Positions 3-54,116 of a stretch of 64,000 bases of DNA are shown in pieces. This stretch comes from Victivallales bacterium (GTDB taxonomy: Bacteria; Verrucomicrobiota; Lentisphaeria; Victivallales; GWF2-50-93). Every line of letters begins with the position of its first letter. Position 1 is the stretch's first letter. The position numbers were made by a program, and so were the translations under genes. Location of the stretch: the NCBI GenBank assembly GCA_049297395.1, contig JBAQUG010000497.1, forward strand, positions 5,516-69,515. The letters are read 5' to 3'. The notes beneath the pieces were generated by a model. That model made no database searches, was not told where the DNA came from, and was given only the letters and a program-made list of their open reading frames with translations.

Positions 3-794
3 ATTGCAACTGAATATCGGGCTTTCCCTGCAGAACGCACGGCATTAAAGAGACTTATCGAGCATAGTGTCGACGGGCTTATCCTTGATATTTGCGACGA
101 GTCGATCAAGCGGGACGAGTTCTCCCGCCTCGCCAACTTCAATGGGCCTGTCATCCAGATTGAATACAGCAGGGCCAGTTTTTCAACTGACACTGTCTCC
201 ACCGACGACCTTGAGGGCGGGCGCCTGGCCGCGAAACACCTTCTTGAACTTGGACATCGCCGCATAGCCTTCTGCCGCTATGGTGAAGGGCGTTCCACAT
301 GCGATGGGCGCTTAGCCGGTTTCAAGAGCATGCTCGACGCCTATGGCGTCAAATTTGATCCGGCCTTGGAAGTCATGCTTCCCGCGCATGCTCCAAATCC
401 GCAGGGAATCTTCATTAAAAACCTGAAAAAAATCCTTTCCCTTCCCGGGGGGATCCGTCCGACCGCAATTTTCGCAACCATGGATCCACTTGTTCCGGAC
501 ATATATGAAGCGGCGGCGGAACTTGGATTGAAGATACCGCACGACCTGAGCGTAGTGGGATATTCCGATTTCGATATAGCCAGGTTTCTGGAACCGAAAC
601 TGACCTGCATCAGGCAGGATGGACTCGCTGTCGGTGCTGAGGCCGTCAGGCTTTTCTTCCAGCGCAGGGATAACCCTGAATCCCCATTGAAATCCTCCGT
701 GCTTCCAGTGGAACTGGTAGTCCGCCAGTCGACAGCTGTCGCTGCAAATTTTTCTTTAAAAAAGAAAAATAATAAAAGGATGGGATTGAAATGA
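3..794 (+). CDS. LacI-family transcriptional regulator, effector-binding (PBP type 1) portion; 5' end lies outside the window
   Basis: Frame +3 is open from base 3. Translation [33 protein letters not shown]...[20 protein letters not shown]...[13 protein letters not shown]...[54 protein letters not shown] shows typical LacI/GalR sugar-binding blocks. The stop overlaps the next start (ATGA at 791-794). Confidence 0.85.
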
Positions 795-1552
795 ACAAAC
801 ATCAATGTGAACACAGACGGCAATTGAAAATTGGCAACACCTTTACCTTGATAGAATTACTCGTCGTAATCGCGATCATCTCCATTCTGGCATCATTGCT
901 CCTGCCGGCGCTCAGCAATGCAAGGGAGGCGGCCAGGGCCAGGCTCTGCATGTCCAACGAAAGACAGATCATGCAGGGATTGTATTTCTATGCGGACGAC
1001 TATAATGAGTTCATGCCGCCCTGCTACTCAGCCAGCTTCGGGGTGGCGGGTTGGCCATCCATAAGATTTTTTGACGGCTGGGTTGCCTGGGCAATGGTCT
1101 ACACAAAAGACTGCACCTTGGAAAATGCCGCCCGCTCGTATGGCTCCGGCGGTACAAAAGGAATATGGGACTGCCCGACAAATCCGTTGCCGTATTGTCA
1201 AAACGGCCTTGCAGGGAACTATGCATATAATCAGGATCTGGGGTATCCCGCTGGTTATGGAGCACCGCTGCGCTGGAAGAATCCTTCGGGTCTCGCAATG
1301 CTGGCCGATGGAGGAAATTATAATTTATACACACCTCCTGCGTATTCTAAAAACTACTGGGAGATAGGGGGCACATTCGCCAGGCAGTGCAACGTGGGGG
1401 TGCTATATGACAGATTCAGGGATGGCTGGCACAGCAGGGGGTACAACATAGGCTTCCTGGACATGCATGCAGAATGGGAGAAGCTCGCTGATAACAAGGA
1501 GATCCCTGGAAAGTATTTCCCTTCATGGCTCCATGACCATGGGCAGTGGTAG
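791..1552 (+). CDS. Prepilin-type N-terminal cleavage/methylation domain protein (DUF1559 / H-X9-DG pseudopilin-like), P1
   Basis: The N-terminus [46 protein letters not shown] is a class III signal/methylation motif. The C-terminal [17 protein letters not shown] resembles the H-X9-DG box (DM variant). An in-frame TTG at 824 would give a shorter [13 protein letters not shown] leader. The gene leads the + strand CAZyme operon. Confidence 0.85.
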
Positions 1553-1575
1553 TAAATATTCACTGAATATTTACT
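1551..1575. promoter_or_regulatory. Perfect 12+1+12 bp palindrome AGTAAATATTCA-C-TGAATATTTACT overlapping the P1 stop codon; operator or intercistronic hairpin candidate
   Basis: Read directly: 1551-1562 is the reverse complement of 1564-1575. No U-run follows, so it is not a classical terminator. It lies between P1 and A1. Confidence 0.35.
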
Positions 1576-1676
1576 TGTAATGCACATGAAATGCTCTGTA
1601 ATATAGCAATTAGATAACATGAGGTGCAATACGGACAATGAAAACATATGATTATTGCAAAACACAGGAGTGCACG

Positions 1677-4600
1677 ATGTTTAAAAAGATGAAATGGACT
1701 GCGTTGGCGGTGGGATTGACAGCGTCTCTTCTGGCTTCGGCAGCGTTCGCCGCGGAGCCTGTCCGCATAGAGAAAAAAGCGATCGAATTCAGTTCCACAA
1801 CGTTGGATGCAAAAGGGGTGGAAGATGTCAGGAAGATCAATATTTTAAGAGGAGGAGGCGAGGCGGAATACACGTTTGACATTCCCGAAACCGGCTGGTA
1901 TGAACTATATGTTACCGCGGCCCAATGGGCGACCGACCTGTTTCTGGACGGCAATTTTCTGATTTATACGCCTTTTGAGAGCGGTGTCTGGGAGAACAGC
2001 AAGGAGAAAGGCAATTTCAAGGTTCTGAATCTCCACCTGGCAAAAGGCGCACACGCCTTGAAGTTCTCAAGACCCTGGCATCCCGGACTTCCCTATATGA
2101 CTAAATTTTCCCTTGAATCCTCAAAGGATATAACCGGGATGGTTTCTCTTAACCTTAAAAAGGACTGCCTTGTTTTCAGGAAGGGAGAGGAATTTCCGGC
2201 AACACTCGTCTCCTCAAAATTAAACGAACAGTCAAATCTTGTCCTTACCGTCACGGATGTCGAAAAGAACAGGGAATTAGTAAAAAAAGAGTTGACGATA
2301 CCTGCTGGAAATGGAAATCATAAGGAGGATCTTGTTTTCCCGACAACGGACGAGGGCGTGTTCGATGTCAAAATAACGGATAAGGATGGAAGACCCTGCG
2401 ACAGGATTGTCCAGTACCTGGTTATTGACACTAAAAAAGATATTGCAGGGGTCAAGGAACTGAAAAAGGAGCTTGTCGGCACGATTGACGCCGGGAAGAA
2501 GGAGCCCGACTATTTTTCAGGGAAGACACGGGTGGTGGATGCGGGATTCGGTCCTTACAGGGAATCAGGAAATAAAGGCAGGGAATCGGGCGTTGAAGCT
2601 GCCGATTGGTTTGCCTATACCTTGAGCCTGCCCGCCATTCAGGAACCATACCTGCTTGAGATAGAGTATCCTGACAATGACAGGAGAACCTGTCCAATAG
2701 TTCTTTGCGAAAGATATGGCAATCCGGAGCCGGCGCTTGGATATTTTACAGGCGGTGTATATCCATTATCGGACAAAATGCTGATGCAGGAATTTTATTT
2801 CTTTCCGCGGGACAAGGATCCCCGGCTCTTATTTTACAACTGGGACAGCGGACAAAGGGCGGCGGTGAGCAAGATCAATATTTATCGTATAACCGAAGGC
2901 TTCCCTGTATTGGACACAAAGGTTTCCGAGCGCCTTTATGGAATCTATCAGGAGGAGCCGCTCCGCTATGTCAATTTCTATGGTGGAATGCCGGAAGGCG
3001 ACAAATGGGCGAATCTATGGAAGCCCGCGGAAAGAGTCGGGCAACTGTCAAATTATGCGGGTATAAACCTGTGGAATCCGACAATAGCTGTCTATGGGAA
3101 TATGCTCTGGCCGGGAAAGACAATACCAGGATACCAGATTGGCATTCTTCCGCCTGGTCCGGCCACGCTTAAAGAACCGATAAAAAAAGATGTGATGAGG
3201 CTGATGCTTTTAACCTGCGAAAAATATAAGATGAAGTTTGTAGGAGATCTGCATATACCGCCTACCAGTGTTTTAATGGAATATCTTGATAAAAGATTTG
3301 GCGGAAAAGGGACTCTGTCCGATGACGGGCCGCAAAAACCATGGCTGACTGTGTCAAACAAGGGGGAGGTTGGACTGAAAAGCACATACAAGCCCTACTA
3401 CAATCCTGTATATCCCGGAGTTCAGGAATGGGCATCGGATGTGTTCAGGGAGATTGTGGAAAGATATAAGGACTCTCCTGCGTTTGAAGGGATTTCAATG
3501 CGGTTTATGGGCTGGTGTTTTGGTGGATTCCAGACATTCGCCTCAATAAACTGGGGATATGAGGACTATACAATTGAATTGTTTGAAAAAGAGACCGGGA
3601 TAAAGATTCCTGTTGGCAAAGATGATCCGGAAAGATTCAAGAAGCGATATGAATACCTGATGGCAAAAAACTATGACGAATGGGTGAACTGGAGATGCAA
3701 AAAGATTAATGATTATCATAACAAGCTCGCGAAAATATTAACCGATGCAAGACCCGACATAAAATTCCATTTATTCCTGTGCGGCGCAAATTTTGGATGC
3801 GATGCGACGCAGGAAGACTATGAGATGAAAGGATGGACCGGCGTGTTAAAGGAGTCGGGAATTGACGCATCCTTATATTCCAAAAACCCTTCCATCAGAA
3901 TATATGAGGGCCGGGGTTATCCGGATGGCGGAAACCGTGGCGATGAAAAACCGCTGACTGTGGCGGAGTCAAGGGACCATACATATTCCTCGGAACAGAT
4001 AAAGGCGGTGGAAAAGGCTGTTGGGGATGGAACGGTTTCCGCCCTGTATTTTGGCACAAACCACGAGGGCGGGTATGTAAAATATGAAAAGCTCGGATAT
4101 TCGCAGAAAGAAGTCACATCAAATAGCAAGACAATATACCCTGACTCGACGGTGAATCCGGCCGGGATACACTATCTTGAAAGGTTTGCGAACGCGATGG
4201 CGGATGGAAATATCGTATGGCTCTCTGATGGGAGTCATGGATATGAATTGGGCCAGCCGATGTATTTGAGGAAGTTCCTGCCCGAATACAGGGCATTGCC
4301 TGCTATCGGAATGAAACCTTTGGAAAAAACAGATCCGGTCGCGCTGTGGCATGGAAAGGACAAGGGGAAGACGTATTTCTATATTGTCAACAGGACATAT
4401 TATCCCGTCGAGGCGGAAGTATCGTTTGCAGGAAACCCGCAGATTAAAAGGATGACGACGGATGAGAAGGTAAAAACTGAAAGGGATGCATTAAAAATAA
4501 AACTGGAGCCATACCAGATTATTTCCTATCAGGACGCTTCAGGCTCCACGCCAAAATCAATAAGCGTGAAGGTGCCTGAAAAAGAAAAGGGAATCCTGGA

Positions 4601-5810
4601 AAGACAGATTAAGGATGCGGAAAAGCTGATAAGGCAGGAGTCATCGGAAATAACGGTCCTGGCGCTGTCGCCTGTGGATCTGAAGAATGCTGAAAAGAAG
4701 ATAAATGAGGCGAAGGAACTGTTCAATGGAGGGAAATACTGGAAGACAAGACAGACTTTGCTGCATAAATATCTTATAAAGGCGTATGAGGCTCTGGGTT
4801 CGTATCCCGAAGGGCTCTTCTCCAGGAAGATGCCGGATATTCCCGGGAATGCGATGCTTCCTGAAAAGATCCTGGAAAATACGAAAGACAAGGCAAAGGC
4901 CAGAGCGGTGGATGCGGAGGAGATAACAAAAGCGCTGTCGGGAACAAAGGTGTTCATATGCGAGGATGAAACAAAATTCAGCATTGATGTCCCGTACAGG
5001 AATAAATACCGGATCTGGTATTCGGCCATTATAGACGAGTCGTTCCAGAGACCGGCTATCTTGATCGACGGGAAACCAATAGAAGAGATGGGGATGACGA
5101 AAGAACTGCTTGCGGAAAGAATCATATCCAGGCCGCTTGTCCTTGAGAAAGGAAGGAAGGAGGTGACGATAAAGAAGGGCGATAGGAAGAGCTCCCTTTT
5201 TTATTTGTTTCTTGAGCCTGTGTACAGGGATATGGAGCCTGATTCCTTCATGGCGATAGGACCGTTTCCGGCGGTGGCGGACACAAGGAACGCTGAAGAA
5301 TTCACCAAAAGGATGGATGAAATTTCAGGGCCTGAAAAGGAGCTGGATTTCACAAAGGGATACGAGGGGCTGAATAATAAGACAGTAAACTGGAGGAAGC
5401 CGGTTGGTAAAGTTGACATGAAGGGCAATATGTGCGACCCGTCTGCGTCAAATTATGTGGATTTATATACGACATTTGGCGTGATGAGCAGCATGATAGG
5501 CTATGCGGCAACCTCAATTGAAAGCCCCGATGAAAGAGACGCGGAGATTAGTTTTGGCGTTGACTATTGGGCGAAGATGTGGCTGAACGGGGAACTGATA
5601 TTGAAACCCGGGGACAGGCCGCTCGCGCCGCCTAAAAAAGGAGAAATGAAAATACAGGTGAAATTAAAGAAGGGTGAAAACATTCTTCTACTGAAGATCC
5701 ACGCAGGCAGCGCCGGCAACGGCTTCTGGCTGGCGATCAGCGATCCGGGCGACCTGAAAATATCGCCCATGCCCCGACAGGGAATGGCTGCCGTCGGAGC
5801 AGGAGCTTGA
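1677..5810 (+). CDS. Giant secreted glycoside-hydrolase-like protein, paralog A1 (jelly-roll / Ig-like / TIM-barrel-like core / beta-sandwich / helical linker / two jelly-rolls)
   Basis: The ORF is 1638-5810. AGGAG at 1666-1670 precedes ATG 1677, giving MFKKMKWTALAVGLTASLLASAAFAAEP (signal peptide). It is block-wise homologous to 16079-20272, 45911-50983 and 58171-62430, and more distantly to 24516-29294. Examples: FAYTLSLPAIQEPYLLEIEYPDNDRR, AAVSKINIYRI, NWGYEDYTIELFEKETGIKIPVGKDDPERFKKRYEYL, YFYIVNR. Confidence 0.85.
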   Translation: MFKKMKWTALAVGLTASLLASAAFAAEPVRIEKKAIEFSSTTLDAKGVEDVRKINILRGGGEAEYTFDIPETGWYELYVTAAQWATDLFLDGNFLIYTPFESGVWENSKEKGNFKVLNLHLAKGAHALKFSRPWHPGLPYMTKFSLESSKDITGMVSLNLKKDCLVFRKGEEFPATLVSSKLNEQSNLVLTVTDVEKNRELVKKELTIPAGNGNHKEDLVFPTTDEGVFDVKITDKDGRPCDRIVQYLVIDTKKDIAGVKELKKELVGTIDAGKKEPDYFSGKTRVVDAGFGPYRESGNKGRESGVEAADWFAYTLSLPAIQEPYLLEIEYPDNDRRTCPIVLCERYGNPEPALGYFTGGVYPLSDKMLMQEFYFFPRDKDPRLLFYNWDSGQRAAVSKINIYRITEGFPVLDTKVSERLYGIYQEEPLRYVNFYGGMPEGDKWANLWKPAERVGQLSNYAGINLWNPTIAVYGNMLWPGKTIPGYQIGILPPGPATLKEPIKKDVMRLMLLTCEKYKMKFVGDLHIPPTSVLMEYLDKRFGGKGTLSDDGPQKPWLTVSNKGEVGLKSTYKPYYNPVYPGVQEWASDVFREIVERYKDSPAFEGISMRFMGWCFGGFQTFASINWGYEDYTIELFEKETGIKIPVGKDDPERFKKRYEYLMAKNYDEWVNWRCKKINDYHNKLAKILTDARPDIKFHLFLCGANFGCDATQEDYEMKGWTGVLKESGIDASLYSKNPSIRIYEGRGYPDGGNRGDEKPLTVAESRDHTYSSEQIKAVEKAVGDGTVSALYFGTNHEGGYVKYEKLGYSQKEVTSNSKTIYPDSTVNPAGIHYLERFANAMADGNIVWLSDGSHGYELGQPMYLRKFLPEYRALPAIGMKPLEKTDPVALWHGKDKGKTYFYIVNRTYYPVEAEVSFAGNPQIKRMTTDEKVKTERDALKIKLEPYQIISYQDASGSTPKSISVKVPEKEKGILERQIKDAEKLIRQESSEITVLALSPVDLKNAEKKINEAKELFNGGKYWKTRQTLLHKYLIKAYEALGSYPEGLFSRKMPDIPGNAMLPEKILENTKDKAKARAVDAEEITKALSGTKVFICEDETKFSIDVPYRNKYRIWYSAIIDESFQRPAILIDGKPIEEMGMTKELLAERIISRPLVLEKGRKEVTIKKGDRKSSLFYLFLEPVYRDMEPDSFMAIGPFPAVADTRNAEEFTKRMDEISGPEKELDFTKGYEGLNNKTVNWRKPVGKVDMKGNMCDPSASNYVDLYTTFGVMSSMIGYAATSIESPDERDAEISFGVDYWAKMWLNGELILKPGDRPLAPPKKGEMKIQVKLKKGENILLLKIHAGSAGNGFWLAISDPGDLKISPMPRQGMAAVGAGA
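5250..5807 (+). other. Shared C-terminal jelly-roll module, copy in A1
   Basis: MAIGPFPAV...GPEKELDFTKGYEGLNNKTVNWRK...SPDERDAEISFGVDYWAKMWLNGE...LKKGENILLLKIHAGSAGNGFWLAISDPGD. The pattern (V.LNG...KG.N.L.V) resembles galactose-binding-domain-like / GH2 sugar-binding jelly-rolls. Confidence 0.7.
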
Positions 5811-5813: not shown

Positions 5814-7484
5814 ATGAACCGAACGGGTTTAATAATTCTCGTTTTTGCCTGTCTCACAGGCCTTTGCGCCATTGCCGATGACATCCCCCGCCTGGAGTTC
5901 CAGAAGATCATCGGCGACATGCGGGGCAGGGGCATGCAGAACTTGTCGGTGACGGTCGCCGATGATGGTGCGGCCTATCTCCTCATGAGTGAAGGGCGCA
6001 TCGCCGTCTTCAATCCAGACGGGAAATATGCAAGAAGCCTGGATGTCCGGCTGACCTGGCCATTCAATCATCAATACATAAGCGCGTGGGGAAGGCGGGT
6101 ACTGCTTGGAGATTACAAGAAGGACTATCCATGGGTGTTCTCGGAACGTCGCGCCGGAGACGCACCTGGACGCTTCAGGAATCCATCCATGGCGGCGCCG
6201 GACAAGGATGGCGCACTCTACGTGGCCGACACGGGCAACAGCCGCGTCCAAGTCTTCGATGCCGGGAAGGAAAACTCTCCAGGGCACGTCATCAGCCTGA
6301 ACGCCAAGCCGTTGAGGCTCGATGTCAGGAACGGAACACTGGCGCTGCTTCTCGACGATCAGACTCTGCGCGTGCTTGATCTCAAAAACAGCCCGGACAT
6401 GGAACTGGGATGCGTGAAAACAGGTCCCGGTGCAGTGGCCGTCGCTCTCACCCCCGACCATGCGGTACTCGTTGCGTTCAACACCGGCCCCGACAGGAAT
6501 TTCCTGAAGAAATATCAAATCGACAAGGAGAGCGGCAAGCTTAAAGAATCCTCGACGATCGCCCCGTCCTATATCGATCAATGGCCGAACCTCTACCCGG
6601 TCGGGATGCCGATGACATCGGCTCCGGACGGATCCATATGGTTCGCTACATCGTATTTCGGACGCATCCTCGCCCTGGATCCCGTCACCGACAAGATCAC
6701 GGAGAAGATCAGGTCCCTGGGGAGCTATCCCCTCTGCGTGGGTTTCGGCTCCGATGGGAAACTCTTCGTGGGCGGCAGCGCCAAGTCCAAGTCAGGAGGC
6801 AGGAGAATCCAGACCATGCCGTTGGACGATCCCGCGTCCCCGGCCACCGAGTTCCCCAATGACAAAGACCTCTACAACGAGGATGGTGTCCCAGTCTGGT
6901 CGATCCTGCCGGACAAGGACGGCGGCGTCTTCGTCAGGATCATCGAGGAAGGATATCAAAAAGGCTGGCCCGCCATGACGATCAAGAAAGTCCTTGCCGA
7001 CGGAACCATGAAGCCTTTCGTGGATTTCGGACATCTGTACGCGAAACGGACGACCTTCCACCCGGCGGGAACCGTGTACTCGATGCAGTTCGACAGGAAT
7101 GGGGATATAATCCTGGCGGCATTGCCTCTGGTGGCCGTCTACAGGATCGCTCCTGACGGGAAAATAGTATGGGAAGCAGGGCTGGAGCCGCAGGGAGGGG
7201 CCGACAAAATTGAATTCGGAGCGCCACGCGCAACGGCCATCGACAGCCACGGCCGCATCTGGGTGGCCGACACTGCCAAGAACAAAGTCTTCTGCCTCTC
7301 CCCTCGGGGCAAACTGCTTTTCGAGTACGGCACGCGCGTCAACGTGGACGACATAGAGGGGAAAGGCTTCGATAATCCCAGCGCCGTCGCCATAGCCACT
7401 GTCAACGGGGCCGACTTCCTCTATGTCGGAGACTCGGGCAACCAGCGGATCGTGAAATACAGGATCATGGAAACGCAGAAGTAA
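5814..7484 (+). CDS. Secreted NHL-repeat beta-propeller protein
   Basis: Signal peptide MNRTGLIILVFACLTGLCAIADD. NHL-type repeats ALYVADTGNSRVQVFD, IWVADTAKNKVFCLSPRGK, LYVGDSGNQRIVKYRI. The ATG lies 3 nt after the A1 stop. It is homologous along its whole length to the C-terminal 603 aa of A3. Confidence 0.85.
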   Translation: MNRTGLIILVFACLTGLCAIADDIPRLEFQKIIGDMRGRGMQNLSVTVADDGAAYLLMSEGRIAVFNPDGKYARSLDVRLTWPFNHQYISAWGRRVLLGDYKKDYPWVFSERRAGDAPGRFRNPSMAAPDKDGALYVADTGNSRVQVFDAGKENSPGHVISLNAKPLRLDVRNGTLALLLDDQTLRVLDLKNSPDMELGCVKTGPGAVAVALTPDHAVLVAFNTGPDRNFLKKYQIDKESGKLKESSTIAPSYIDQWPNLYPVGMPMTSAPDGSIWFATSYFGRILALDPVTDKITEKIRSLGSYPLCVGFGSDGKLFVGGSAKSKSGGRRIQTMPLDDPASPATEFPNDKDLYNEDGVPVWSILPDKDGGVFVRIIEEGYQKGWPAMTIKKVLADGTMKPFVDFGHLYAKRTTFHPAGTVYSMQFDRNGDIILAALPLVAVYRIAPDGKIVWEAGLEPQGGADKIEFGAPRATAIDSHGRIWVADTAKNKVFCLSPRGKLLFEYGTRVNVDDIEGKGFDNPSAVAIATVNGADFLYVGDSGNQRIVKYRIMETQK

Positions 7485-7579
7485 CGCGTCTTTACAAAAA
7501 CGCGGGGTCAGTTCCGTACTTTTCCCTCGTGCCTCGGGAAGAAGTCCTGGGACCGACCCCAGTAAAACTGACGCGTTAC
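7481..7579. repeat. Structured intergenic repeat R1, copy 1 (nested hairpin of about 99 nt)
   Basis: The core aaaaacgcggggtcagttccgtacttttccctcgtgcctcgggaagaagtcctgggaccgaccccagtaaa is nearly identical to 24406-24474. The outer stem GTAACGCGTC (7481-7490) pairs with GACGCGTTAC (7570-7579). It overlaps the stop codon of the NHL gene. Confidence 0.7.
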
Positions 7580-7643
7580 AAGCAGAATGATTGAATGGGT
7601 TTTTTAAAAACGTTTTCTATAATTTTTCGAAAGGGTCTGAAAC

Positions 7644-9359: not shown

Positions 9360-9374
9360 AAGAATATTTCAGGG

Positions 9375-20272: not shown

Positions 20273-20355
20273 CGTCATAATCCCTTCGTTTCTGTTAATA
20301 TATTTTTTTAAAAACATCTTTGCTTAATCGAACCATTCAATGATGCGTCTCTTCG

Positions 20356-30015: not shown

Positions 30016-30044
30016 AGTATATCAATGTATCATGGCAAAGTCAA
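30016..30044 (-). promoter_or_regulatory. Sigma70-type promoter TTGACT-N17-TATACT with TG extended -10 (drives the P2-A5... operon)
   Basis: The minus strand reads TTGACTttgccatgatacatTGaTATACT. The spacer is exactly 17 nt. The predicted TSS is near 30009, 54 nt upstream of ATG 29955. Confidence 0.65.
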
Positions 30045-36376: not shown

Positions 36377-36409
36377 GAGAGATCCTTTCCAAGTTTTGAA
36401 TTTCTTGTT

Positions 36410-38305: not shown

Positions 38306-38338
38306 GGTATTTTTCAGTTCAACTCTTCTCCATCGCAA

Positions 38339-39265: not shown

Positions 39266-39378
39266 ACATACCTCCCTTATGTAATCAGAATATAAGCCAA
39301 GTTCCATATAAAACCCATACTCCATCTATATCTTTTCTTTGCGCTTCTGTTTTCATATTGAAAGATTTACAATTTGAT

Positions 39379-42837: not shown

Positions 42838-43167
42838 GGGAAAGATGCTTGGCAGCAACTCGATTACTAAACAGTTTAGAGATAGTTGATCTTCTGAAAT
42901 ATTTTGTCGAGCAGGCATATGACATCTTCCTGTTTTATACTTTCTTTGTATTCCCGTTGCCTTGACAATATTATGAGGCCTGTACCCTGTCAAGACAAAA
43001 TTTTGATTTAGTGGATTACTAAAGGTTACATTATGGTGACATATCATGAATATGTTCCATGCATATGATTGACATGATGCATATGGCAGTTATCGTAATA
43101 ATCAAAGATGAGAAGCACTATTCCCCTTCAGGGCGAATATCATTAAGGAATAAGGAGAGCTTCGATT

Positions 43168-45359: not shown

Positions 45360-45487
45360 GAATGTAACTTAAATATTTAAGTCGATTTGTCAAGAAGCGG
45401 TGCTGATTTATTTTATTTTTTCCTGGAGTATGTAGACGGGTAACCGTCAAACTGGGTGACACAGCCTCATTTCGCGTATTAGACTAT

Positions 45488-45910: not shown

Positions 45911-48900
45911 TTACTTTATCATGAACTTTACGATCCGCTGGTTGCCGACATCCGCGACATAAAGCCACTCAATTCCTTTTGCGTCCTTGATCGCGGCAAT
46001 CCCGGTCGGTTGGCGGAATGACATGCCGTCACGGTCGTCGAGAGTTCCAAACTTGCCATAGGACTTGAGGAATTTACCTTTTGAGTCAAGACAGACGAAA
46101 TTGTTTCTGGCGGGTTCGGTCAGCCAGACATGTCCGCTGCTGTCGGTGGTGATCCCGATTGGCTGGCGGAACGGGGTTGAACCATGTCCCTGGTGCGGAT
46201 CGAATTTGTCCTGCCAGATGATTTCAGCTTTTTGAGAGAGGCAGGTGACCGAGCGTGTTCCGCCGCCTGCAATGAATATTTTCCCGTCGGTTCCCAGGTG
46301 GAGTCCGTAATCGCCCCATGGCAGGGTGCCGCCGAGATGGATCAGTTTTTCCCTCTTTCCGTCGTCAGGGGAGTATCGGAAAATTGTCACAGTCGGTCCG
46401 CCAGCTTTAACTTCCGGATCGTCGAGCCGGAGGATCAGTCGCCCGTCGGATTCGACCTCGAGATCTGTAGGCGAGTACGACCAGTTGTCAAAGAGCGGCT
46501 TGTCTCCATTGAGCATTTTGGGTTTGTCCCAGCCGGTTGCGGTTTTCGCGCAGCGGTATACGTTCATGCCTCGGCTGTTGCTGTAGAAACCGAAATTGGA
46601 TGCCAGGTAGATTGAACCGTCCGGCGCCAGCGCGAACGACTGGATATCGGCATTAGGAAGCCCGGGATCATAGGCGATCTCGATGGTATCCGGAGTTCCA
46701 GGAGTGAGACGCATCAGCTTGTTGTGCGCCAGATAGTAGATCTTTCCACCGTTCACCTTGAGCTGGGTGGTTCCCTTCAAACTTTGTGTCTGCATTGATG
46801 AAAGTCCCGGGATCAGATCGCGTCTCGCTTCCAGTCCATTCCTGAGGATGAAATATTCCCTTGCGACAACACCGTTTGTTTCCTGCTGGAATCCTATGGC
46901 GATGCCAAGATCAGGGCTGATCGCAAGCGCGGTTGCCTTGGCTGGAAGGTTGAAGGACCATGATTTTGCGAATTTCGCATCTGATCCTCTATCAAAGCAG
47001 AGTATGGCCGTACCGTCGGAGTTCGTTGCAAGCATCTTCGAGCCGTCAGGAAAAACTGCGAGCTTCCCAAGCTTTTTAAATTCGTCCGAGGTAAGGGATT
47101 CAATTTCCTTGCCTGATGACGAAAACACTTTGATCCCGTCTGCCGAGACGAGGTAGATGTTGTCCTTTGCGTCCACTGCGCCGCCGGAGGCGGTGGTGTC
47201 CGCCAGCTTGTTGCTCGGCGTGCCGTTGACAGAATAGTCGAATGACATTGTGCCGTCTTCACGGAATTTATAGACGCCTTTCATGTCCGCAGGTTCGGGG
47301 CAGGTGAGATATGGATTGCCCCATTTGTCTATTGCCAGCAGCGAACTTCGCATTCCCGGCACCGGGAATCCGTATCCCCATTCGAGACGGAGAAGCCTTC
47401 CGGTGTTCGTCTCGTAGAGTGCGGGCTGGGTATGCCATGACATCGCGGCCAGACGCTTGTCCGGAGTGAGCCTCAGTGACCATGTGTCGAGGTACCTGGG
47501 ATTGGCAAGCTGCGCCCATCTCGGATCTCCTTCATCAGGCGTGTGGGCAAGATTGAGGGAGAGGCATTTCAGGTAGTTGCCATCCCTGTCGAAAAGCATT
47601 ACCTGCTCATGCGACGCAGCCCAGAGATTGCTTTCGGTGTCATATGCCAGATCGGTGATCGTTGAAAGGCGGCCGCGCACGTCGCCGATTATCGACTGCA
47701 AACCAAGGAAATCGACTTTGGGCGCATCCTTCACATCGGTGAAACCGTGCGGGATCTTGCGTTCGAGAAGGCCGCTCGGGAATCTGCCGTTGATGTCGTA
47801 TACTCTGACCAATGATGAGCGCTCGAGATTTCCCTTCGCCTGCCAGAACCGTCCTTCGCCGTAGGCCCTGATGGATTCATTCAGCAGGCGCATCGCCTCG
47901 CGGGCGTCGGGTTCGGAAAGTTCCGGAGCAGTCCGGCGGTAACGCAGATCATTGAGGAGATCCTTGGCGAACGTGATCATCGGGAGGAGTTTAGCCGATA
48001 TTTCCGGAGGCACCTCAACAGAACAGTTCTTAATCGAGACATTGCCTCCTTCAGCGCGGAACGAGCGCAGCATGAACGGTTCGAGTTCGAATGACAATGC
48101 CTTTCCGTCCTTGAGGGTGAGAGGTTCGCCGCCTGCGGCAGGGACGACTTTGGAGGCGTTTGCCGTTGAAAGTTCCACCTTCACATTTTTCGGCAGCCTG
48201 TTGACAGCATAGAAATAGAATCCGGGACTGATTTTCAGTTTGTCGGCCTCCTCCTTCTTCACTTCGCGTGTCCAGACTGCGACCGGATCGCGCGCCTTTT
48301 CGAAAGGAATGAACTTCAATGCTGGCAGCGCGCGGAATTCGCGGAGGAACGGGCTTAAAACCGGAGGTGTGCCGAACATCCATCCGTTTCCGCCGTTCAC
48401 AAAGAAGCTGGTGTCGGAATCCGCCATGGCGATGGCGTAGAGCTCGCGTTCATTTATGCCGCTAGGAGAGCTGCAGTCGAAGGCGCAGTAGCCTTTTTTG
48501 CCGCCCAGCTTTTCCCAGTCCAGGTTGTCATTGACCTCGTAGTAGTCGGTATAGATTGAAAAACCGCGGTCACCGAGTCGGGCGACAGTTTTGACATCCT
48601 CCGCATAGAGAGGATCGGACTTTTTGGCATCGCCGACCGGGGTTGAATATCGGCGCCCGTATCCGCCGCCCTGCACGATTACAAATCCGTCTTCGGCCGC
48701 ATAGCGGCGGTAGTCCATCCCGATCTCACGCATCTGTCCGAGTATGTCCTGGCTGTAGGCCTCTTTTGGATCCGGACCGAAATAGTTGAGGAACAGTTTT
48801 GCATCCGGTTTAGCCTGCCTGATCCTGTCGCGTAGCCTGCAATGGTAGTTAAATATTTTGTCGCAGCGCCAGCCGATCCACTTTTCACGCGCCGTTCCGG

Positions 48901-50983
48901 TTAGGAAGTCGAAGCGCTGGCGGAATCTTTTCGGATCTCCCGCCTTGCCGGGAACCTTCATGCCCGTATCCTTTTCAAACTGCGCAACTGTCCAGTCGTC
49001 ATATCCCCAGTTCAGGCTGGGCAGGGCGTTCCATCCCTGCCACTGCCAGGAGAGCATGAGGCGCGTAGAAATTCCCGCGAATGATTCGCAGTCACCGAGG
49101 CGGTCGGCTAGTTCGCCAAAGACGGAAATGTACATGTCCTGGATTTTAGGATGCAGGGCGTTGTAGCCGGCGGCCTTCCACCCGAACGAAGTCCCGCCAT
49201 CGCGGTTACGGATGATGTATTCCTCGGCAGTCGGCGCAATATGCAGTATCGATTCCTTCTTTCCATCATTTTCCTTTTCTTCATTCCATACGCCCATGAT
49301 GTGCTTGTCAAACCAGGCCTGTCCGCTGAGATGGAATTCCGCGACATATTTGCCGTGGTATTTTTCGGCCATCAGCGCGACCACCCTTGTCATGTCGTAC
49401 GATTCGCTGAAATATCCGTCGAGTATCTTGCTGGGATAGGCGTTGTACTGGTAGACGTTCGCGGTCGGGAACATCAGGTTGGCGCCGAGATACCTGTTCC
49501 ATTGGCCCCAGCGGTCGAGAGTGGTCAGATGTTCAATGAGCCCTGCTGGTCCTTCTCCCGCCTTTGCGCCGAAGAAGCGCATCCATCTGGGTCCCTCCTC
49601 GAAATAGAATCCCATGACGCGGCCGCTGGCAGGACCTGATGGACCGTCTGGCAGCGCGGAGTCGACCCTGTCGATCTGTATCTTTGCGGCGGCCGCCCTG
49701 TATCCAGGCACCAGGTTCAGGACCGCGACTACGATTCCTTCTTTCTTAAGAGGATAGAAAAACGCCTCGTGGGTCAGCAGGGAATTTGTCAGAGGATATT
49801 GGTCTCCGGTTTCCACGCCACCGGTCAAAGTGATGCCATTTCTGCCATCGGCGCCATCGTTGGTCCAGAATCCCATGCTGCGCCGCTCGTCGTCGGGATA
49901 AGTGACTCTCAAACGGTAAAGATGGTCCGTGTCCGGCAGGTCAAACTTATAGGAGAATCCATCGGTAGCCCAGTGATCCGACGTTCCTTTCCCAGACGAT
50001 TCACGGTACTTGCCAAATGGCGATTCGACAATTCTGCTTTCGCCGTCCTTTTCAAAAAATGTCTTGTCCTTTTCGACGGACTTTCCGTTGATGGTCTGGT
50101 TCACGCAGTCGATTTCAACAACCGTAGAAGTCTTTAGTTCGGCGGCCGGCGCCGGCGGATTCTTCGTGTCGATCACGATGAACATCCCGGCCTTGAGATC
50201 GGCGGGCCGTGAAAGTTTCTCCCCGGACTTGATGAGGAGCTGGAAGACTCCCTGCTGTGGGAACTCTATTTCAACTTCCTTTGAGATCGGTTCGGCGCTT
50301 ACGGGGAACTCCACTGTTCCGCATGGAGTGATCTCCTTGGTGTTCTCATTGCGGACGACGAGATCGTAGGATGCAGGGACCGTGGTTCCGCCGGAAAACG
50401 AAATCCTGATCTTTGTGCCGGCGCGGACGACGTTGTGGCCGACACCGGTTGCGCGGATGCAGCCTGCAGCTTCACCGTCCGTGCTTCTAAGCTCCCACTT
50501 GCTCGGCAGTGCTCCTGGAAAGCCCAGGCGGCGGATCCGGAGGGTATGCTTCCCTTCCTTTAGATAGAGGTTGGCCTCCTTCCACCAGGTGCCTTTTTCC
50601 CCTTTCCGGGATGCCAGGTCACTGTCTTCCTTATGCGAATATGTCAGGAGGAAAAGAATCCTGCCATCGAGGTAGATATCCCGGCTCCAGCCTGAGACGC
50701 CGTCTTTCTCCATCAGTTCGAACCAGCCGGATTTGGCGATAGTGAAATCATATTCGACCCAGCCGCCGGCGCCAAGGATGGTTCCCGCAACCTTCTGATC
50801 CTCCATCGACGAGATCCAGCCCTTCACTCCTGGCTTGAGCAATGCTGCAGGCCATTCCAGTTCCGAACGGTCATAGCTCCAGACATCGCGGGTGATGACA
50901 GGTTTTGTCTCAGCACCCTGAGGGTATACGGCAGATGCTGAAAGGAACACTGATGCAGCGATCATCAACGCTTTTTTTATCAT
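45911..50983 (-). CDS. Giant secreted GH-like protein, paralog A3, with a C-terminal NHL beta-propeller in place of the jelly-roll module
   Basis: MIKKALMIAASVFLSASAVYPQG is the signal peptide. Family blocks: FSYKFDLPDTDHLYRLRVTYPDDERR, NWGYDDWTVAQFEKDTGMKVPGKAGDPKRFRQRFDFL, FYFYAVNR. The C-terminus ..IEWLYVADVGNQRIVKFMIK is NHL-type. The ATG lies 1 nt after the GH29 stop. Confidence 0.85.
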   Translation of the reverse strand: MIKKALMIAASVFLSASAVYPQGAETKPVITRDVWSYDRSELEWPAALLKPGVKGWISSMEDQKVAGTILGAGGWVEYDFTIAKSGWFELMEKDGVSGWSRDIYLDGRILFLLTYSHKEDSDLASRKGEKGTWWKEANLYLKEGKHTLRIRRLGFPGALPSKWELRSTDGEAAGCIRATGVGHNVVRAGTKIRISFSGGTTVPASYDLVVRNENTKEITPCGTVEFPVSAEPISKEVEIEFPQQGVFQLLIKSGEKLSRPADLKAGMFIVIDTKNPPAPAAELKTSTVVEIDCVNQTINGKSVEKDKTFFEKDGESRIVESPFGKYRESSGKGTSDHWATDGFSYKFDLPDTDHLYRLRVTYPDDERRSMGFWTNDGADGRNGITLTGGVETGDQYPLTNSLLTHEAFFYPLKKEGIVVAVLNLVPGYRAAAAKIQIDRVDSALPDGPSGPASGRVMGFYFEEGPRWMRFFGAKAGEGPAGLIEHLTTLDRWGQWNRYLGANLMFPTANVYQYNAYPSKILDGYFSESYDMTRVVALMAEKYHGKYVAEFHLSGQAWFDKHIMGVWNEEKENDGKKESILHIAPTAEEYIIRNRDGGTSFGWKAAGYNALHPKIQDMYISVFGELADRLGDCESFAGISTRLMLSWQWQGWNALPSLNWGYDDWTVAQFEKDTGMKVPGKAGDPKRFRQRFDFLTGTAREKWIGWRCDKIFNYHCRLRDRIRQAKPDAKLFLNYFGPDPKEAYSQDILGQMREIGMDYRRYAAEDGFVIVQGGGYGRRYSTPVGDAKKSDPLYAEDVKTVARLGDRGFSIYTDYYEVNDNLDWEKLGGKKGYCAFDCSSPSGINERELYAIAMADSDTSFFVNGGNGWMFGTPPVLSPFLREFRALPALKFIPFEKARDPVAVWTREVKKEEADKLKISPGFYFYAVNRLPKNVKVELSTANASKVVPAAGGEPLTLKDGKALSFELEPFMLRSFRAEGGNVSIKNCSVEVPPEISAKLLPMITFAKDLLNDLRYRRTAPELSEPDAREAMRLLNESIRAYGEGRFWQAKGNLERSSLVRVYDINGRFPSGLLERKIPHGFTDVKDAPKVDFLGLQSIIGDVRGRLSTITDLAYDTESNLWAASHEQVMLFDRDGNYLKCLSLNLAHTPDEGDPRWAQLANPRYLDTWSLRLTPDKRLAAMSWHTQPALYETNTGRLLRLEWGYGFPVPGMRSSLLAIDKWGNPYLTCPEPADMKGVYKFREDGTMSFDYSVNGTPSNKLADTTASGGAVDAKDNIYLVSADGIKVFSSSGKEIESLTSDEFKKLGKLAVFPDGSKMLATNSDGTAILCFDRGSDAKFAKSWSFNLPAKATALAISPDLGIAIGFQQETNGVVAREYFILRNGLEARRDLIPGLSSMQTQSLKGTTQLKVNGGKIYYLAHNKLMRLTPGTPDTIEIAYDPGLPNADIQSFALAPDGSIYLASNFGFYSNSRGMNVYRCAKTATGWDKPKMLNGDKPLFDNWSYSPTDLEVESDGRLILRLDDPEVKAGGPTVTIFRYSPDDGKREKLIHLGGTLPWGDYGLHLGTDGKIFIAGGGTRSVTCLSQKAEIIWQDKFDPHQGHGSTPFRQPIGITTDSSGHVWLTEPARNNFVCLDSKGKFLKSYGKFGTLDDRDGMSFRQPTGIAAIKDAKGIEWLYVADVGNQRIVKFMIK
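45914..47722 (-). other. NHL/beta-propeller region of A3 (last 603 aa), homologous to the free-standing protein 5814-7484
   Basis: LQSIIGDVRGR aligns with FQKIIGDMRGR at the start. At the end, FRQPIGITTDSSGHVWLTEPARNNFVCLDSKGKFL..FRQPTGIAA..WLYVADVGNQRIVKF aligns with FGAPRATAIDSHGRIWVADTAKNKVFCLSPRGKLL..FDNPSAVAI..FLYVGDSGNQRIVKY. Confidence 0.75.
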
Positions 50984-50984
50984 A

Positions 50985-53219
50985 TCACCGGGCTTTCATC
51001 TTTATGTCTTCCATGTCGTTTATCCGGCATGTGAACCAGTTGGCACAGCTGCCGCGATGACATTTGACGAGGAGGATATTGCTTCCTTTCCTGAGGTGTA
51101 TTTCCGCCGGGCCGGGCTTCCATCCGTTGAACTGCGAACCGTCCTCGGCCATGGCCGAAGCTGGACGGCATCCGGCGAGGGGACTGCCATTGATCCAGGC
51201 TTTCGCCCACCAGTCGCAGCCGATAAGAAGGAGAGCCTTGCATTCCTTTGAGCTTATAATTTCCGTCCTGGCATAGCATACCCCGCTGTGCCTGGAACCG
51301 CAGCGGTATGGAAAGTCGACACCAATGTCCGAATGTTCGCCTTCGCGAAGCTTGGAATGCTGCCACCTGACTTTATCTTTTCCAATTCCCTGATAGGATT
51401 TTTTCAAGTCGAATTCCTTCTCCGGGGGGAAAACCGTGGACATTGCCTTGCGAACTTCGCAGACAGGAGCCTGCGGCCCGAATGCCGTGGGGAACGGTCC
51501 GATGGTCAACCAGTTCTCTGAAGGAATGGGTTTCCAATGGGGCGTGACTTTCAGAGCGTAGATTCCGAGTTTCTCAATTGATTTTATCAACAGCCTGTGA
51601 TGTCCATGTGAAAGGTGCTTGTTCTCCAGGATTACAGTATCAGGGCATCCTCCGTAACGCAGGAGGCCCACAGGTTTCATCAGATCACCGTCAAGACGTA
51701 TCTCAATGGAAGATGCTTTTTTCGTGATCAGTCCGACGGCTATGTCGTAGACCCCGTCCGCCGGCACTGCAATATTCAAAATTGGAAACAGGCTTTCCGG
51801 CAATGAAAAAACAGTCCGTCCAGTCCAGCCCGGACACCATTTGGACGAGTCGGAGCCGACAAGGGTTCTGGAATTTTGGATGAGAATTTTAAGCGGCCTC
51901 CCCTCTATGACAGGAGGTTCGGGCGGTGAAAAACGGTCGCTGTCCTGGCCGAGTACCGGAGCCTCCCCCTTTTTCATGCGGATACCGTTCCTGGCATGGC
52001 CTAGCGTATCGGCGGGGATGCCGAAAGTCTTTGATTTAATGGAAAGAACCTCAGGTAGATTGTCATGGGAGATCTTAGGCAGGCCGCCAACATCTATTGT
52101 CATGTCCGATTCCGTTTTTATTTTCAGTTCTGAATAGCCTTCCAGGATGCAGGCTTCGAAATTCCTGGAATTGAGACCTTCCAGCCGGATGTTTTTTCCT
52201 GTGTTTCTGGAAATGAAGAAGAAGGCCTTCTGTCCTTTTGATGTTACCGGACCACAGGCGTGGTTGGCTTCGCTGTATGCGGTGCGCTGCGTGCCGTAAA
52301 TGGCGTCGCCGTTTGTCTTGAGCCATTTCCCTATTGTCTCGAGTCGTTTTGTAAATTCGGGCTGGATCGTGCCATCGGCCTTTGGGCCGACATTGAGGAG
52401 GAGGTTTCCTTCAAAGCGTGCCGCGTAGATGAGGCAGTCAATTACTTCCTGCGGGGATTTGAAATTCCTGTCCGAAGGGTTGTATCCCCAGCTTTGATTG
52501 AGGGTCATGCATGCCTCCCAGCGCTGTCCGGCCGCCGGTGCGGTGACGTGCTGCTCTGGCGTGATGAAATCCTCATGAAGACCCGAGCGATCATTGATCA
52601 ATATGTCGGGCTGTAGACGGCGGACCATTGCATTCAGCTCCCTGGAGCGCCAGTATTTCGCCTGCATTTTGTCGTCCTGCATCCCCGGTACGACTGCGCC
52701 GTCATACCAGAGCATGTCTATCCTGCCGTAATTGCCCATGATTTCACGGACCTGTGCATGGGATTCCTTCACCATTGCCGCCCAGCCCTTGGGATCGGCT
52801 GTGGGTCCAGTAAGGATTGCAGGCCATTGCCAGCTCATGACAGAATGATACAGTCCGATCCGGAGCCCGGCCCTGCGGCATGCGTCGACGAATTCCCTCA
52901 CGAAGTCGCGTCCCGCCGCAGTTTTTACGGAATTGTAGTCGCTCACCTTGCTGTCATACATTGCGAATCCGTCATGATGCCTGGTAGTGAATACCATGTA
53001 CTTCGCACCGGCCCTTACTGCGAGATCCGCCCATTCTTCGGCATTGAACTTATCGGGGGGATTGAACTGTTCTGTGAGCCTGTTGTATTCCGGCTTCGGG
53101 ATCTTCTCCTTGAACATCACCCATTCCCCGCGCCCCCATATCGAGTAGATCCCCCAGTGTACGAATATTCCGAATTTTGCTTCATTGAACCAAGACTGTC
53201 CCGTCTTTCGATTTTCCAT
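50985..53219 (-). CDS. GH29 alpha-L-fucosidase with beta-sandwich linker and the shared C-terminal jelly-roll module; no N-terminal signal peptide
   Basis: WFNEAKFGIFVHWGIYSIWGRGEWVM, MVFTTRHHDGFAMYDSKVSDYNS and IDMLWYDGA are canonical GH29 blocks. The N-terminus MENRKTGQSW lacks a hydrophobic segment. Confidence 0.85.
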   Translation of the reverse strand: MENRKTGQSWFNEAKFGIFVHWGIYSIWGRGEWVMFKEKIPKPEYNRLTEQFNPPDKFNAEEWADLAVRAGAKYMVFTTRHHDGFAMYDSKVSDYNSVKTAAGRDFVREFVDACRRAGLRIGLYHSVMSWQWPAILTGPTADPKGWAAMVKESHAQVREIMGNYGRIDMLWYDGAVVPGMQDDKMQAKYWRSRELNAMVRRLQPDILINDRSGLHEDFITPEQHVTAPAAGQRWEACMTLNQSWGYNPSDRNFKSPQEVIDCLIYAARFEGNLLLNVGPKADGTIQPEFTKRLETIGKWLKTNGDAIYGTQRTAYSEANHACGPVTSKGQKAFFFISRNTGKNIRLEGLNSRNFEACILEGYSELKIKTESDMTIDVGGLPKISHDNLPEVLSIKSKTFGIPADTLGHARNGIRMKKGEAPVLGQDSDRFSPPEPPVIEGRPLKILIQNSRTLVGSDSSKWCPGWTGRTVFSLPESLFPILNIAVPADGVYDIAVGLITKKASSIEIRLDGDLMKPVGLLRYGGCPDTVILENKHLSHGHHRLLIKSIEKLGIYALKVTPHWKPIPSENWLTIGPFPTAFGPQAPVCEVRKAMSTVFPPEKEFDLKKSYQGIGKDKVRWQHSKLREGEHSDIGVDFPYRCGSRHSGVCYARTEIISSKECKALLLIGCDWWAKAWINGSPLAGCRPASAMAEDGSQFNGWKPGPAEIHLRKGSNILLVKCHRGSCANWFTCRINDMEDIKMKAR
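50988..51512 (-). other. Shared C-terminal jelly-roll module, copy in GH29
   Basis: WLTIGPFPTAF...FPPEKEFDLKKSYQGIGKDKVRW...CKALLLIGCDWWAKAWINGS...FNGW...HLRKGSNILLVKCHRGSCANWFTCRINDMED. Confidence 0.7.
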
Positions 53220-53250
53220 GTCTGATTATTCTATCCTTTTCATTAAGATA

Positions 53251-53976
53251 TTAAAATTCCGCTGCACCTGCATCTTTTATAAGCCATTTCGACGCCTGGG
53301 GAAATGGATACGCTTCTGGTAGGCCAGGAAACACACTGGCTCCAAGAGCCTGGGCATGACCGTCAAAGAAAAGGGTGTTGCTTCTGCCTCCGAACCATAC
53401 GCCGTTTGATGCCTGCCTGCCGCCGTGACGAAGTGAAATATTGCCGGTAATGTAGAACTCCGTCCACTTGAGACGAAGCTGGCCTGCGTCATTGCTGTCC
53501 ATGAAATTGATTTTGGAGCTTGGCGATTTGAACTCCGAGAGCTTGCAGGTTATTCCAAGGTTGGGGGAATCATCATTGCTGTTGACGTGTGCATTCTGCC
53601 CCCAGGAAGGATGGTTTCCGTTGAAAATCCCGGTCGGATTGTTCGGGCACACGAGAAAAATCCCCGCAGGCTGCTTGTCCATCGGTTTGCAGCTCTTGGA
53701 GGAGTCGAAGCCCAGGTATTCGGCGATCCTGACATATTCAGTGCAGCCCGCCTGGCTGTAAGGAAGGGGAACGTCTTTCCTGTCGGCAATATATTCGTTC
53801 CAGTCCATTATATACATTGCCTCAGCCGCGCCAACCGACTTGAGCTTGTTGATGCAGTCGATCTGCTTGGCCAGTTCCTTTGCATTCTTCAGCGCGGGCA
53901 GCAGCATCGCCGCAAGGATTGCGATGATCGCAATAACCACAAGCAATTCGATCAGTGTGAACAGATGATTTTTCAT
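53251..53976 (-). CDS. Prepilin-type / DUF1559 pseudopilin-like protein, P4
   Basis: [48 protein letters not shown] starts at ATG 53976. The ORF-track start at 54048 is a TTG. C-terminal [13 protein letters not shown] is a DGH box. GH29 starts 31 nt after the stop. Confidence 0.85.
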
Positions 53977-54087
53977 GGCAGCACCTTGCACGTTTATTAT
54001 ACTCCTTTGCCCTGTCGGAAAACTGCCATCGTGCCCGGATGGATTCAAAACCTGAACCTGCCGCTGCCCGGCTGCGATGACAATGGC

Positions 54088-54116
54088 AGTATATCACTAT
54101 ATCATAAACATGTCAA
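54088..54116 (-). promoter_or_regulatory. Sigma70-type promoter TTGACA-N17-TATACT with TG extended -10 (drives P4-GH29-A3)
   Basis: The minus strand reads TTGACAtgtttatgatatagTGaTATACT. The spacer is 17 nt. The last 16 nt are identical to the promoter at 62468-62496. Confidence 0.7.

Follow-up and report, generated by a model that had tools for sequence, protein, structure and literature searches.

Within a 64-kb stretch of a Victivallales bacterium genome (contig JBAQUG010000497.1; hereafter the window, meaning the whole stretch analysed), four genes for type IV prepilin-like proteins, designated PP1 to PP4, lie among genes for carbohydrate degradation. Comparison with other loci identified a conserved module in which a sugar-responsive regulator gene is followed by a pilin-like gene, often overlapping it or a few tens of nucleotides (nt) away, and then by a gene for a large exported protein resembling carbohydrate-active enzymes (CAZymes). 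The conserved 5′ element of this module is the regulator gene, of the LacI or GntR-PBP (periplasmic binding protein) type, and not the pilin gene. This association of regulator, pilin-like gene and exported enzyme is real and appears to be previously undescribed, and its most plausible reading is a cluster-specific role of the pilin-like protein with a machine encoded elsewhere.

The comparison covered 84 loci, namely loci L001 to L004 and 80 further loci from species-representative genomes. Enrichments were seen in the Lentisphaerota set, a small sample of 34 loci with 46 pilin genes. Of 45 pilin genes there, 11 had a co-directional LacI, GntR-PBP or AraC regulator gene directly upstream, compared with 11 among 303 other genes (p = 1.3e-5). 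A linked, co-directional next gene followed 29 of 46 pilin genes and 120 of 286 others (p = 0.01). The next gene encoded a signal-peptide-like N-terminus in 22/32 cases after a pilin gene (69/249 otherwise, p = 9e-6), and its product was at least 600 amino acids (aa) long in 22/32 cases (60/249 otherwise, p = 9e-7). Among 27 upstream co-directional neighbours, Pfam identified 12 Peripla_BP_3, nine GntR helix-turn-helix (HTH), two LacI HTH and one AraC domains, and in most regulator–pilin pairs the regulator stop lies 5-140 nt from the pilin motif, with ATGA-type overlaps of the two genes in the window, in L012 and twice in L165. Consensus extended −10 promoters were located upstream of the regulator gene in L001, L010 and L031. 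Domains encoded downstream were mainly carbohydrate-related, including DUF4838 (five times), CBM9 (three times), AXE1, CBM_4_9, GH67N, GH43, rhamnosidase, polysaccharide lyase and sulfatase. Verrucomicrobiota and Planctomycetota loci showed no leader, regulator or next-gene enrichment. Metagenome contigs, mostly short and with copies carrying Gly or Ala at residue −1 of the prepilin motif (G/A copies), provided a weak replicate: five copies were of Lentisphaerota type, two of them with an upstream regulator, which was found in 2/5 non-G/A copies and 0/43 G/A copies.

Both the regulator and the large exported gene are enriched next to pilin genes, and the arrangement at PP1 is therefore the archetype of this module. 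A LacI gene, whose stop overlaps the PP1 start by 4 nt as ATGA (791-794), is followed by PP1, the second gene of the unit behind this translationally coupled regulator, and then by the gene for a 1390-aa exported protein. The succession of PP2 and a 1592-aa protein, like that of PP4, a GH29 fucosidase and a 1690-aa protein, fits the second half of the module. The features concerned are the following.

1..794 (5′ end outside the window), + strand: LacI-family regulator gene (Peripla_BP_3, E=2e-22; frame open from base 3)
791..1552, + strand: PP1 pilin-like gene, with N_methyl and TIGR02532 matches
1638..5810, + strand: 1390-aa exported GHL10 protein (GHL10 42.6 bits, signal-peptide-like N-terminus), next after PP1
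24516..29294, − strand: 1592-aa exported paralogue of the same giant family (weak GHL10 match, paralogy, signal peptide), next after PP2
29344..29955, − strand: PP2 pilin-like open reading frame (ORF), with its motif at 29757, internally deleted
30016..30044, − strand: near-consensus sigma-70 promoter with extended −10, upstream of PP2
38339..39325, − strand: PP3 pilin-like ORF, with its motif at 39010 and an N-terminal extension
45911..53219, − strand: 1690-aa exported giant-family paralogue and GH29 fucosidase (744 aa; Alpha_L_fucos E=1e-89), downstream of PP4 with GH29 first
53251..53976, − strand: PP4 pilin-like gene, with a TIGR02532 match and its motif at 53961
54088..54116, − strand: near-consensus promoter with extended −10, upstream of PP4

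The gene context of close PP4 orthologues, at 57-76% identity, was also determined. The order in L002 is LacI, pilin, 75 aa, 1732 aa, PP4 orthologue, 1432 aa, 1685 aa and GH29, and that in L003 is AraC, 1405 aa, PP4 orthologue, GH31, GntR and 1469 aa. When these neighbours were compared with the window by BLAST, counterparts were found for the 1419-aa protein (50-52% identity), the 1690-aa protein (77%), GH29 (61%), GH31 (73%) and the 1412-aa protein (61%), and orthologues of the 1419-aa gene adjoin PP4 orthologues in L002, L003 and L004. In neither L002 nor L003 is the PP4 orthologue itself first: it stands mid-operon in L002 and behind a giant gene in L003. The neighbourhood of PP4 is conserved, then, while its gene order is not. 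The LacI of the window is 71% identical to that of L002, which likewise precedes a pilin-like gene, but the two pilin genes behind these orthologous regulators are not orthologous to each other. As a separate observation, an 8.6-Mb Victivallales chromosome (L166) carries a gene for a GspD-type secretin at 3154-4950, about 5 kb upstream of an operon with LacI, polysaccharide-lyase-like and pilin-like genes; this was the only gene for filament or secretion machinery seen near any pilin-like gene.

Four divergent pilin-like proteins

A six-frame scan detected exactly four FTLIELL-type prepilin motifs in the window, at 842, 29757, 39010 and 53961, and all four proteins pass the TIGR02532 cut-off of 16.3 bits (22.7, 20.2, 35.2 and 21.7 bits for PP1 to PP4). 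This bears out a first-pass annotation of the same stretch, made from the letters and ORFs alone, which had listed these as its only prepilin-type genes. In each copy FTLIELL is followed by a hydrophobic run, so that Glu5 and a hydrophobic alpha-1N segment of about 20 residues are present throughout. The assignment to the DUF1559 family made in that annotation does not hold as given: the window copies themselves remain below the gathering score of PF07596 (PP1 at 22.8 vs 23.3 bits; no match for PP2, PP3 and PP4), whereas homologues of PP4 at 35-52% identity carry this domain. An exact H-X9-DG motif occurs in the window only in PP3, which scores 16.5 against a TIGR04294 cut-off of 19. At the corresponding site PP1 has H-X9-D-M, PP4 has DGH without a His at that spacing, and in PP2 the region is deleted. 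The GspG model scores 29-35 bits, through the N-terminal helix only, against an equivalog cut-off of 88.85. There are thousands of homologues, with Victivallales or Lentisphaeria as their labels, and many of them carry PF07596. The closest named relatives are proteins from Victivallales metagenome-assembled genomes (MAGs): PP4 shares 76% identity with the P0002 cluster, and PP2 shares 72% with P0016. A lookup of encoding contigs for P0013, P0014, P0054 and PP4 returned none on record.

In an alignment of 25 sequences, the N-terminal helix segment is nearly invariant, including Glu5 (the invariant E10 of the alignment), and two invariant cysteines and a conserved C-terminal N.LF.DGH block are shared, while the heads are otherwise only 25-50% identical. 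A confident AlphaFold2 (AF2) model of PP4 built from this alignment (predicted local distance difference test score, pLDDT, 88.7) has an N-terminal helix at 8-58, about 50 residues, and an alpha/beta head. The predicted fold is a pilin-like lollipop, in which the long alpha-1 helix packs on the head, and PDB comparisons returned matches to pilin alpha-1 helices only. Taken together, these results identify the four genes as encoding divergent, DUF1559-related, type IV pilin-like proteins.

Two of the copies depart from this scheme. The motif of PP3 lies 103 codons into the ORF, in which an ATG at 39266 is supported by a ribosome-binding site (RBS). At least 42 aa extend the N-terminus of PP3, and this extension includes a degenerate second pilin motif. 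In PP2 an in-frame deletion has removed about 91 residues, and with them the conserved C-terminal RH...DGH block: its alignment to P0016 covers residues 56-192 and then jumps to the C-terminal tail. The deletion nevertheless leaves PP2 with its C-terminal tail, a strong promoter and an ATG supported by an RBS. Its −1 codon is GTG, and a leaderless start (M-FTLIELL) is possible. Degenerate second motifs were observed 15-25 residues before the true FTLIELL in both PP3 (39060-39020) and PP2 (29860-29800), within long N-terminal extensions, and likewise in P0012, P0013 and P0016 (one example is FTPIELLVACQPKPWRRP); such a motif may represent either an unusual leader or the scar of a recombination event.

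Gene order and content of the window

The gap from pilin gene to next co-directional gene is 85 nt for PP1, 49 nt for PP2, 0 nt for PP3 (33 nt with the ATG start of the sulfatase gene) and 31 nt for PP4. These gaps, the ATGA overlap with LacI and the two near-consensus promoters were all confirmed as first annotated. The promoters read TTGACT-17-TATACT (30044-30016, upstream of PP2) and TTGACA-17-TATACT (54116-54088, upstream of PP4), each with an extended −10 TG. Both are instances of a 29-nt motif, TTGAC-N8-GATAYAKTGATATACT, present three times in the window against 0 expected (30016-30044, 54088-54116 and 62468-62496), the third copy preceding the pilin-less 1419-aa gene. The motif may tag genes that are regulated together, or it may be no more than this organism's consensus for strong promoters. 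It contains a tandem GATATA-GT-GATATACT, and a fourth TGATATACT was noticed at 24305-24313, upstream of a heparinase-like gene. The shared GATATAGTGATATACT was considered as an operator and rejected, since it overlaps the extended −10 element and could not be told apart from the promoter consensus.

On the upstream side, PP3 is preceded by a co-directional CBM9-containing gene at 53-112 nt, depending on the start codon, PP4 by a co-directional GH116 gene at 176 nt, and PP2 by a VapBC-type pair at 130 nt. This pair (30086-30678, − strand) lies between a GH31 gene and the PP2 promoter, and its 125-aa PIN toxin ORF overlaps the 72-aa AbrB/SpoVT-like antitoxin ORF by 4 nt. Further features of the window, assigned from Pfam matches except for the last, are listed below.

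5814..11732, + strand: NHL/SGL (556 aa), GH39-like (571 aa) and DUF5703_N (785 aa) genes, preceded by gaps of 3, 159 and 15 nt
34508..38338, − strand: sulfatase (642 aa) and DUF3604 (622 aa), the two genes after PP3
within 39379..44232, − strand: CBM9-containing 1222-aa gene, co-directional upstream of PP3
43168-44232, + strand: GntR-HTH/PBP regulator gene, divergent from the CBM9 gene
within 54153..57690, − strand: GH116 gene, co-directional upstream of PP4
56815-57690, + strand: AraC regulator gene, divergent from the GH116 gene
58171..62496 including the promoter motif at 62468-62496, − strand: 1419-aa exported giant-family paralogue without a pilin gene (paralogy, motif scan)

The ORF listing, together with Pfam and NCBIfam scans, describes the window as a dense carbohydrate-degradation region, encoding GH29, GH116, GH31, GH39-like, AXE1, heparinase-II/III-like, sulfatase, DUF3604 and DUF5703_N enzymes along with CBM9 and LamG proteins. 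Its regulators comprise two LacI, one GntR-HTH/PBP and one AraC. With CAZymes beside transcription factors, it is a CAZyme gene cluster in the sense of dbCAN, defined as a CAZyme plus a regulator or transporter within two genes (as quoted in PMC11131199). Pfam scans of ORFs of at least 200 aa found no SusC/D, TonB-dependent, ABC, MFS or SSF transporter in the 64 kb. GH29, GH116, GH31, sulfatase, DUF3604 and DUF5703 proteins lack a signal peptide and are presumably cytoplasmic. No Rfam family matched in the window, including its gene-poor gaps at 32563-33492 and 45360-45910, which hold only short doubtful ORFs.

Five paralogous exported giants of 1390-1690 aa, 21-37% identical to one another, are encoded at 1638-5810, 16079-20317, 24516-29294, 45911-50983 and 58171-62430. 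The GHL10 threshold is reached only by the 1390-aa protein, two others falling below it and two having no Pfam match. PDB sequence searches found no solved relative, and the family was seen only in the closest relatives of the window (L002-L004). Six enzymes, encoded at 1638-5810, 16079-20317, 20356-24198, 24516-29294, 50985-53219 and 58171-62430, share a C-terminal domain that ends in ...N.LLVK.H.GS.G..F...I.DPGD... and is visible as DNA repeats D3/D4. One of the six is GH29, which lacks a signal peptide. Judging by motif resemblance only, the domain is probably a beta-sandwich of carbohydrate-binding type, which is more likely than a sorting signal.

Other repeats were also observed. An 82-nt intergenic repeat (85% identity; 7490-7571 and 24399-24480) follows two genes that are unrelated and face in opposite directions; the repeat has internal inverted repeats and could be a terminator module or an element akin to repetitive extragenic palindromes or miniature inverted-repeat transposable elements (REP/MITE-like). 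A 57-nt stretch at 84% identity links the 3′ end of a LacI gene (44257-44313) with that of the GH29 gene (50993-51049) in different frames. The C-terminal tail of this LacI seems to have originated as a piece of an enzyme gene; if so, it would be a rearrangement scar.

Possible roles of the pilin-like genes

Our preferred reading, which we hold tentatively, is that the pilin-like proteins are cluster-specific partners of large exported enzymes and use a shared type IV filament or type II secretion system (T2SS)-like machine encoded elsewhere. Each would be co-expressed with its own cluster, with which, we infer, it is co-transcribed. The near-invariant N-terminal helix with Glu5 would dock the different paralogues into one common apparatus, while the variable head would engage the large exported enzyme encoded in the same cluster, for outer-membrane passage or for retention at the cell surface. 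The pilin-like gene would then be a cluster-specific accessory rather than an operon-defining leader.

Several observations weigh against this reading. Pfam scans of the window found no gene for a filament, a T2SS or a prepilin peptidase. The exported 1412-, 1419- and 1280-aa giants have no adjoining pilin gene, and the enzymes encoded directly after PP3 (sulfatase, DUF3604) and PP4 lack a signal peptide; the latter, GH29, had been named in the first-pass annotation as a candidate cargo, a role that its missing signal peptide does not support. PP2 is internally deleted. Canonical prepilin peptidases need Gly at −1 in their PilD/GspO substrates. In the window this residue is Thr in PP1, Val in PP2, Gly in PP3 and Leu in PP4. 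Gly(−1) is absent from three of the four genes, and canonical prepilin processing is therefore in doubt. Across the Lentisphaerota-assigned loci and the window, Gly is found at −1 in 5/50 copies and Ala in 4/50 (9/50 together), as against Gly or Ala in 55/60 copies from Verrucomicrobiota and Planctomycetota, which implies that the Lentisphaerota-type copies are either cut by a peptidase of different specificity or left uncut. The comparative statistics have weak points of their own. Genes were called by a simple longest-ORF heuristic and units were defined by intergenic gap, and signal peptides were called by a hydrophobicity-window test whose performance was checked only on the proteins encoded in the window. 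The loci were chosen via a pilin gene, so that the background consists of neighbouring genes and is not a random genome sample. The Lentisphaerota set combines 30 loci so labelled with L001-L004, which were placed by similarity to the window, and the MAG that contains L003 and L004 is labelled Chitinivibrionia. A bolder version of the preferred reading, which we consider unlikely as a whole, is that Lentisphaerota turned the type IV pilin scaffold into a large set of operon-specific envelope adaptors, non-canonically processed in that they lack Gly(−1), each transcribed with the sugar-responsive repressor of its cluster and paired with one large exported enzyme, and together giving substrate or cargo specificity to one filament or secretion machine that all of them share.

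Minor pilins that bind DNA and modular pilins that bear lectins suggest an analogy, in which the variable heads might instead bind the polysaccharide of their cluster, a retractile type IV pilus then reeling the substrate to the cell. The diversity of the heads against an invariant helix is consistent with this, as are the co-location with CAZymes and sugar-responsive regulators and the lack of a transporter in 64 kb in which several glycosidases have no signal peptide, and there are published precedents (PMC8179133; bioRxiv 10.1101/614800; dextran binding in Planctopirus via PMC11131199). However, Pfam, NCBIfam and PDB comparisons recognised no carbohydrate-binding domain in the heads, the large exported immediate downstream partner is left unexplained, and Gly(−1) is missing here as well. 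We consider such glycan capture unlikely.

The same scarcity of Gly or Ala at −1 (9/50 against 55/60) speaks for a role in which the protein is never cleaved, and instead stays in the inner membrane as an anchor with a periplasm-facing binding or sensor domain that works with the co-transcribed LacI or GntR-PBP regulator, perhaps to sense oligosaccharides or to hand them over. The tight, often translational coupling of pilin and regulator genes points the same way, as does the Pfam name of the family, SBP_bac_10. Yet an invariant Glu5 and alpha-1N across paralogues would be expected for contact with assembly machinery and not for a simple anchor, the AF2 model is pilin-like, and regulators of the LacI type, being cytoplasmic, do not require a partner in the membrane. 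On balance, an uncleaved anchor seems quite unlikely.

The first-pass annotation had proposed that a substrate-specific pseudopilin leads, and defines, each CAZyme operon in the way of SusC/D. In the window, three of the four pilin genes do head tight multi-gene units (hypergeometric p = 0.022, post hoc), and two have strong promoters. In the Lentisphaerota set the pilin gene is the first structural gene in 19/34 cases against 12.5 expected once leading regulators are ignored (p = 0.015). Strict first position, however, is at chance level in this set (13/35 against 12.2 expected, p = 0.44), and over all loci 25-31% of pilin genes are unit leaders, compared with 21-25% of other genes. Between 9 and 14 of about 44 pilin genes follow a structural gene other than a regulator, PP4 orthologues stand mid-operon, and the Verrucomicrobiota and Planctomycetota loci show zero enrichment. 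A strict operon-leader rule was accordingly rejected on the 84 loci. By gap criteria, about nine CAZyme-type units of the window have no pilin gene, one of them with the same promoter motif, which disposes of the idea that each operon encodes its own pilin; with so many pilin-less units and no fixed position, the pilin gene does not define the operon as SusC/D does. The description of each pilin gene as the first of a CAZyme operon applies in a loose sense only, since PP1 is second in its unit and PP3 and PP4 have co-directional CAZyme genes upstream. The pilin genes are likewise genuine members of regulator-controlled CAZyme clusters that recur in relatives, as had been suggested, but the leader rule falls, and we regard the leader model as very improbable.

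Mere hitch-hiking, in which numerous recombinogenic pilin genes with near-identical 5′ ends pile up in plastic CAZyme regions and adjacency means nothing, is very improbable too: pilin genes make up 12% of the genes in these loci, PP2 is a decayed copy, both PP2 and PP3 have a degenerate second motif upstream, non-orthologous pilin genes follow the orthologous LacI genes of the window and L002, and further rearrangement scars are present, but placement beside regulators and large exported proteins is strongly non-random (p ~1e-5 to 1e-6) and orthologous pilin–enzyme neighbourhoods are kept at 57-77% protein identity.

Relation to known systems

Few unexplained gene expansions in the Planctomycetes–Verrucomicrobia–Chlamydiae (PVC) superphylum are as large as that of the DUF1559-type pilin-like proteins, and the family appears in papers only as an expanded PVC family with no function assigned (PMC4807772; PMC5352709). 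The open-access literature held no paper that ties DUF1559-type pilin-like genes to CAZyme operons, and none on a module of regulator, pilin-like gene and exported enzyme or on the loss of Gly(−1). Planctomycetota CAZyme clusters are described in PMC11131199 as functionally uncharacterised, with pilin-like members unmentioned. The module touches on the question of how PVC bacteria export enzymes for, or take up, complex or sulfated glycans without SusC/D, and it provides a genomic marker for picking pilin–enzyme pairs. Our results also correct the equation of a leader gene with a marker of polysaccharide utilisation loci (PULs) before it enters annotation.

The window copies share with DUF1559/H-X9-DG proteins (PF07596 SBP_bac_10; TIGR04294) the class-III-like signal, the length and the PVC-wide taxonomic range. 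A further shared trait, except in PP2, is the C-terminal N.LF.DGH block conserved across the alignment. They differ in scoring below the curated cut-offs and, for Lentisphaerota-type copies, in lacking Gly or Ala at −1. With the GspG-K pseudopilins they have in common the N-terminal helix (GspG/GspH models) and the predicted lollipop shape, and relatives are annotated by NCBI as 'type II secretion system protein'. In contrast to GspG-K, the window genes are not in a gsp operon and occur as dispersed single genes, with many paralogues, in enzyme clusters. Modular and minor pilins such as PilB/PilC of Streptococcus sanguinis and CofB-CofJ of enterotoxigenic Escherichia coli (ETEC) embody the same concept of a constant pilin module with a variable functional head. 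Modular or minor pilins, some with lectin modules, act as adhesins or secretion adaptors, CofB being an adaptor for a secreted protein (PMC8179133). These are encoded in pilus operons, whereas the window genes are in catabolic operons behind sugar-responsive regulators and have no recognisable grafted domain.

A link between pilins and polysaccharide degradation is likewise found in the type IV pili of fibre degraders such as Caldicellulosiruptor bescii, Ruminococcus and Fibrobacter, where pili are linked to, and regulated by, polysaccharide (bioRxiv 10.1101/614800; PMC3672088; PMC4704652), with xylan regulation of the pili in Caldicellulosiruptor (bioRxiv 10.1101/614800). Fibre-mediated dextran binding is attributed to Planctopirus in the summary given in PMC11131199. 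The fibre degraders have one complete pilus locus near their enzyme loci; here, many single pilin-like genes occur, at one or more to an enzyme cluster, with no assembly genes nearby. The Bacteroidota PULs, finally, resemble the window in their co-localised CAZymes, sulfatase and regulators and in having a variable, cluster-specific, non-enzymatic component. They differ in that the window has no SusC or SusD, and its pilin-like genes are absent from most CAZyme units and have no fixed position. Should the adaptor reading be true, the family would receive its first functional assignment, and polysaccharide utilisation would have a third organising principle beside SusC/D and ABC transporters with substrate-binding proteins (ABC-SBP).

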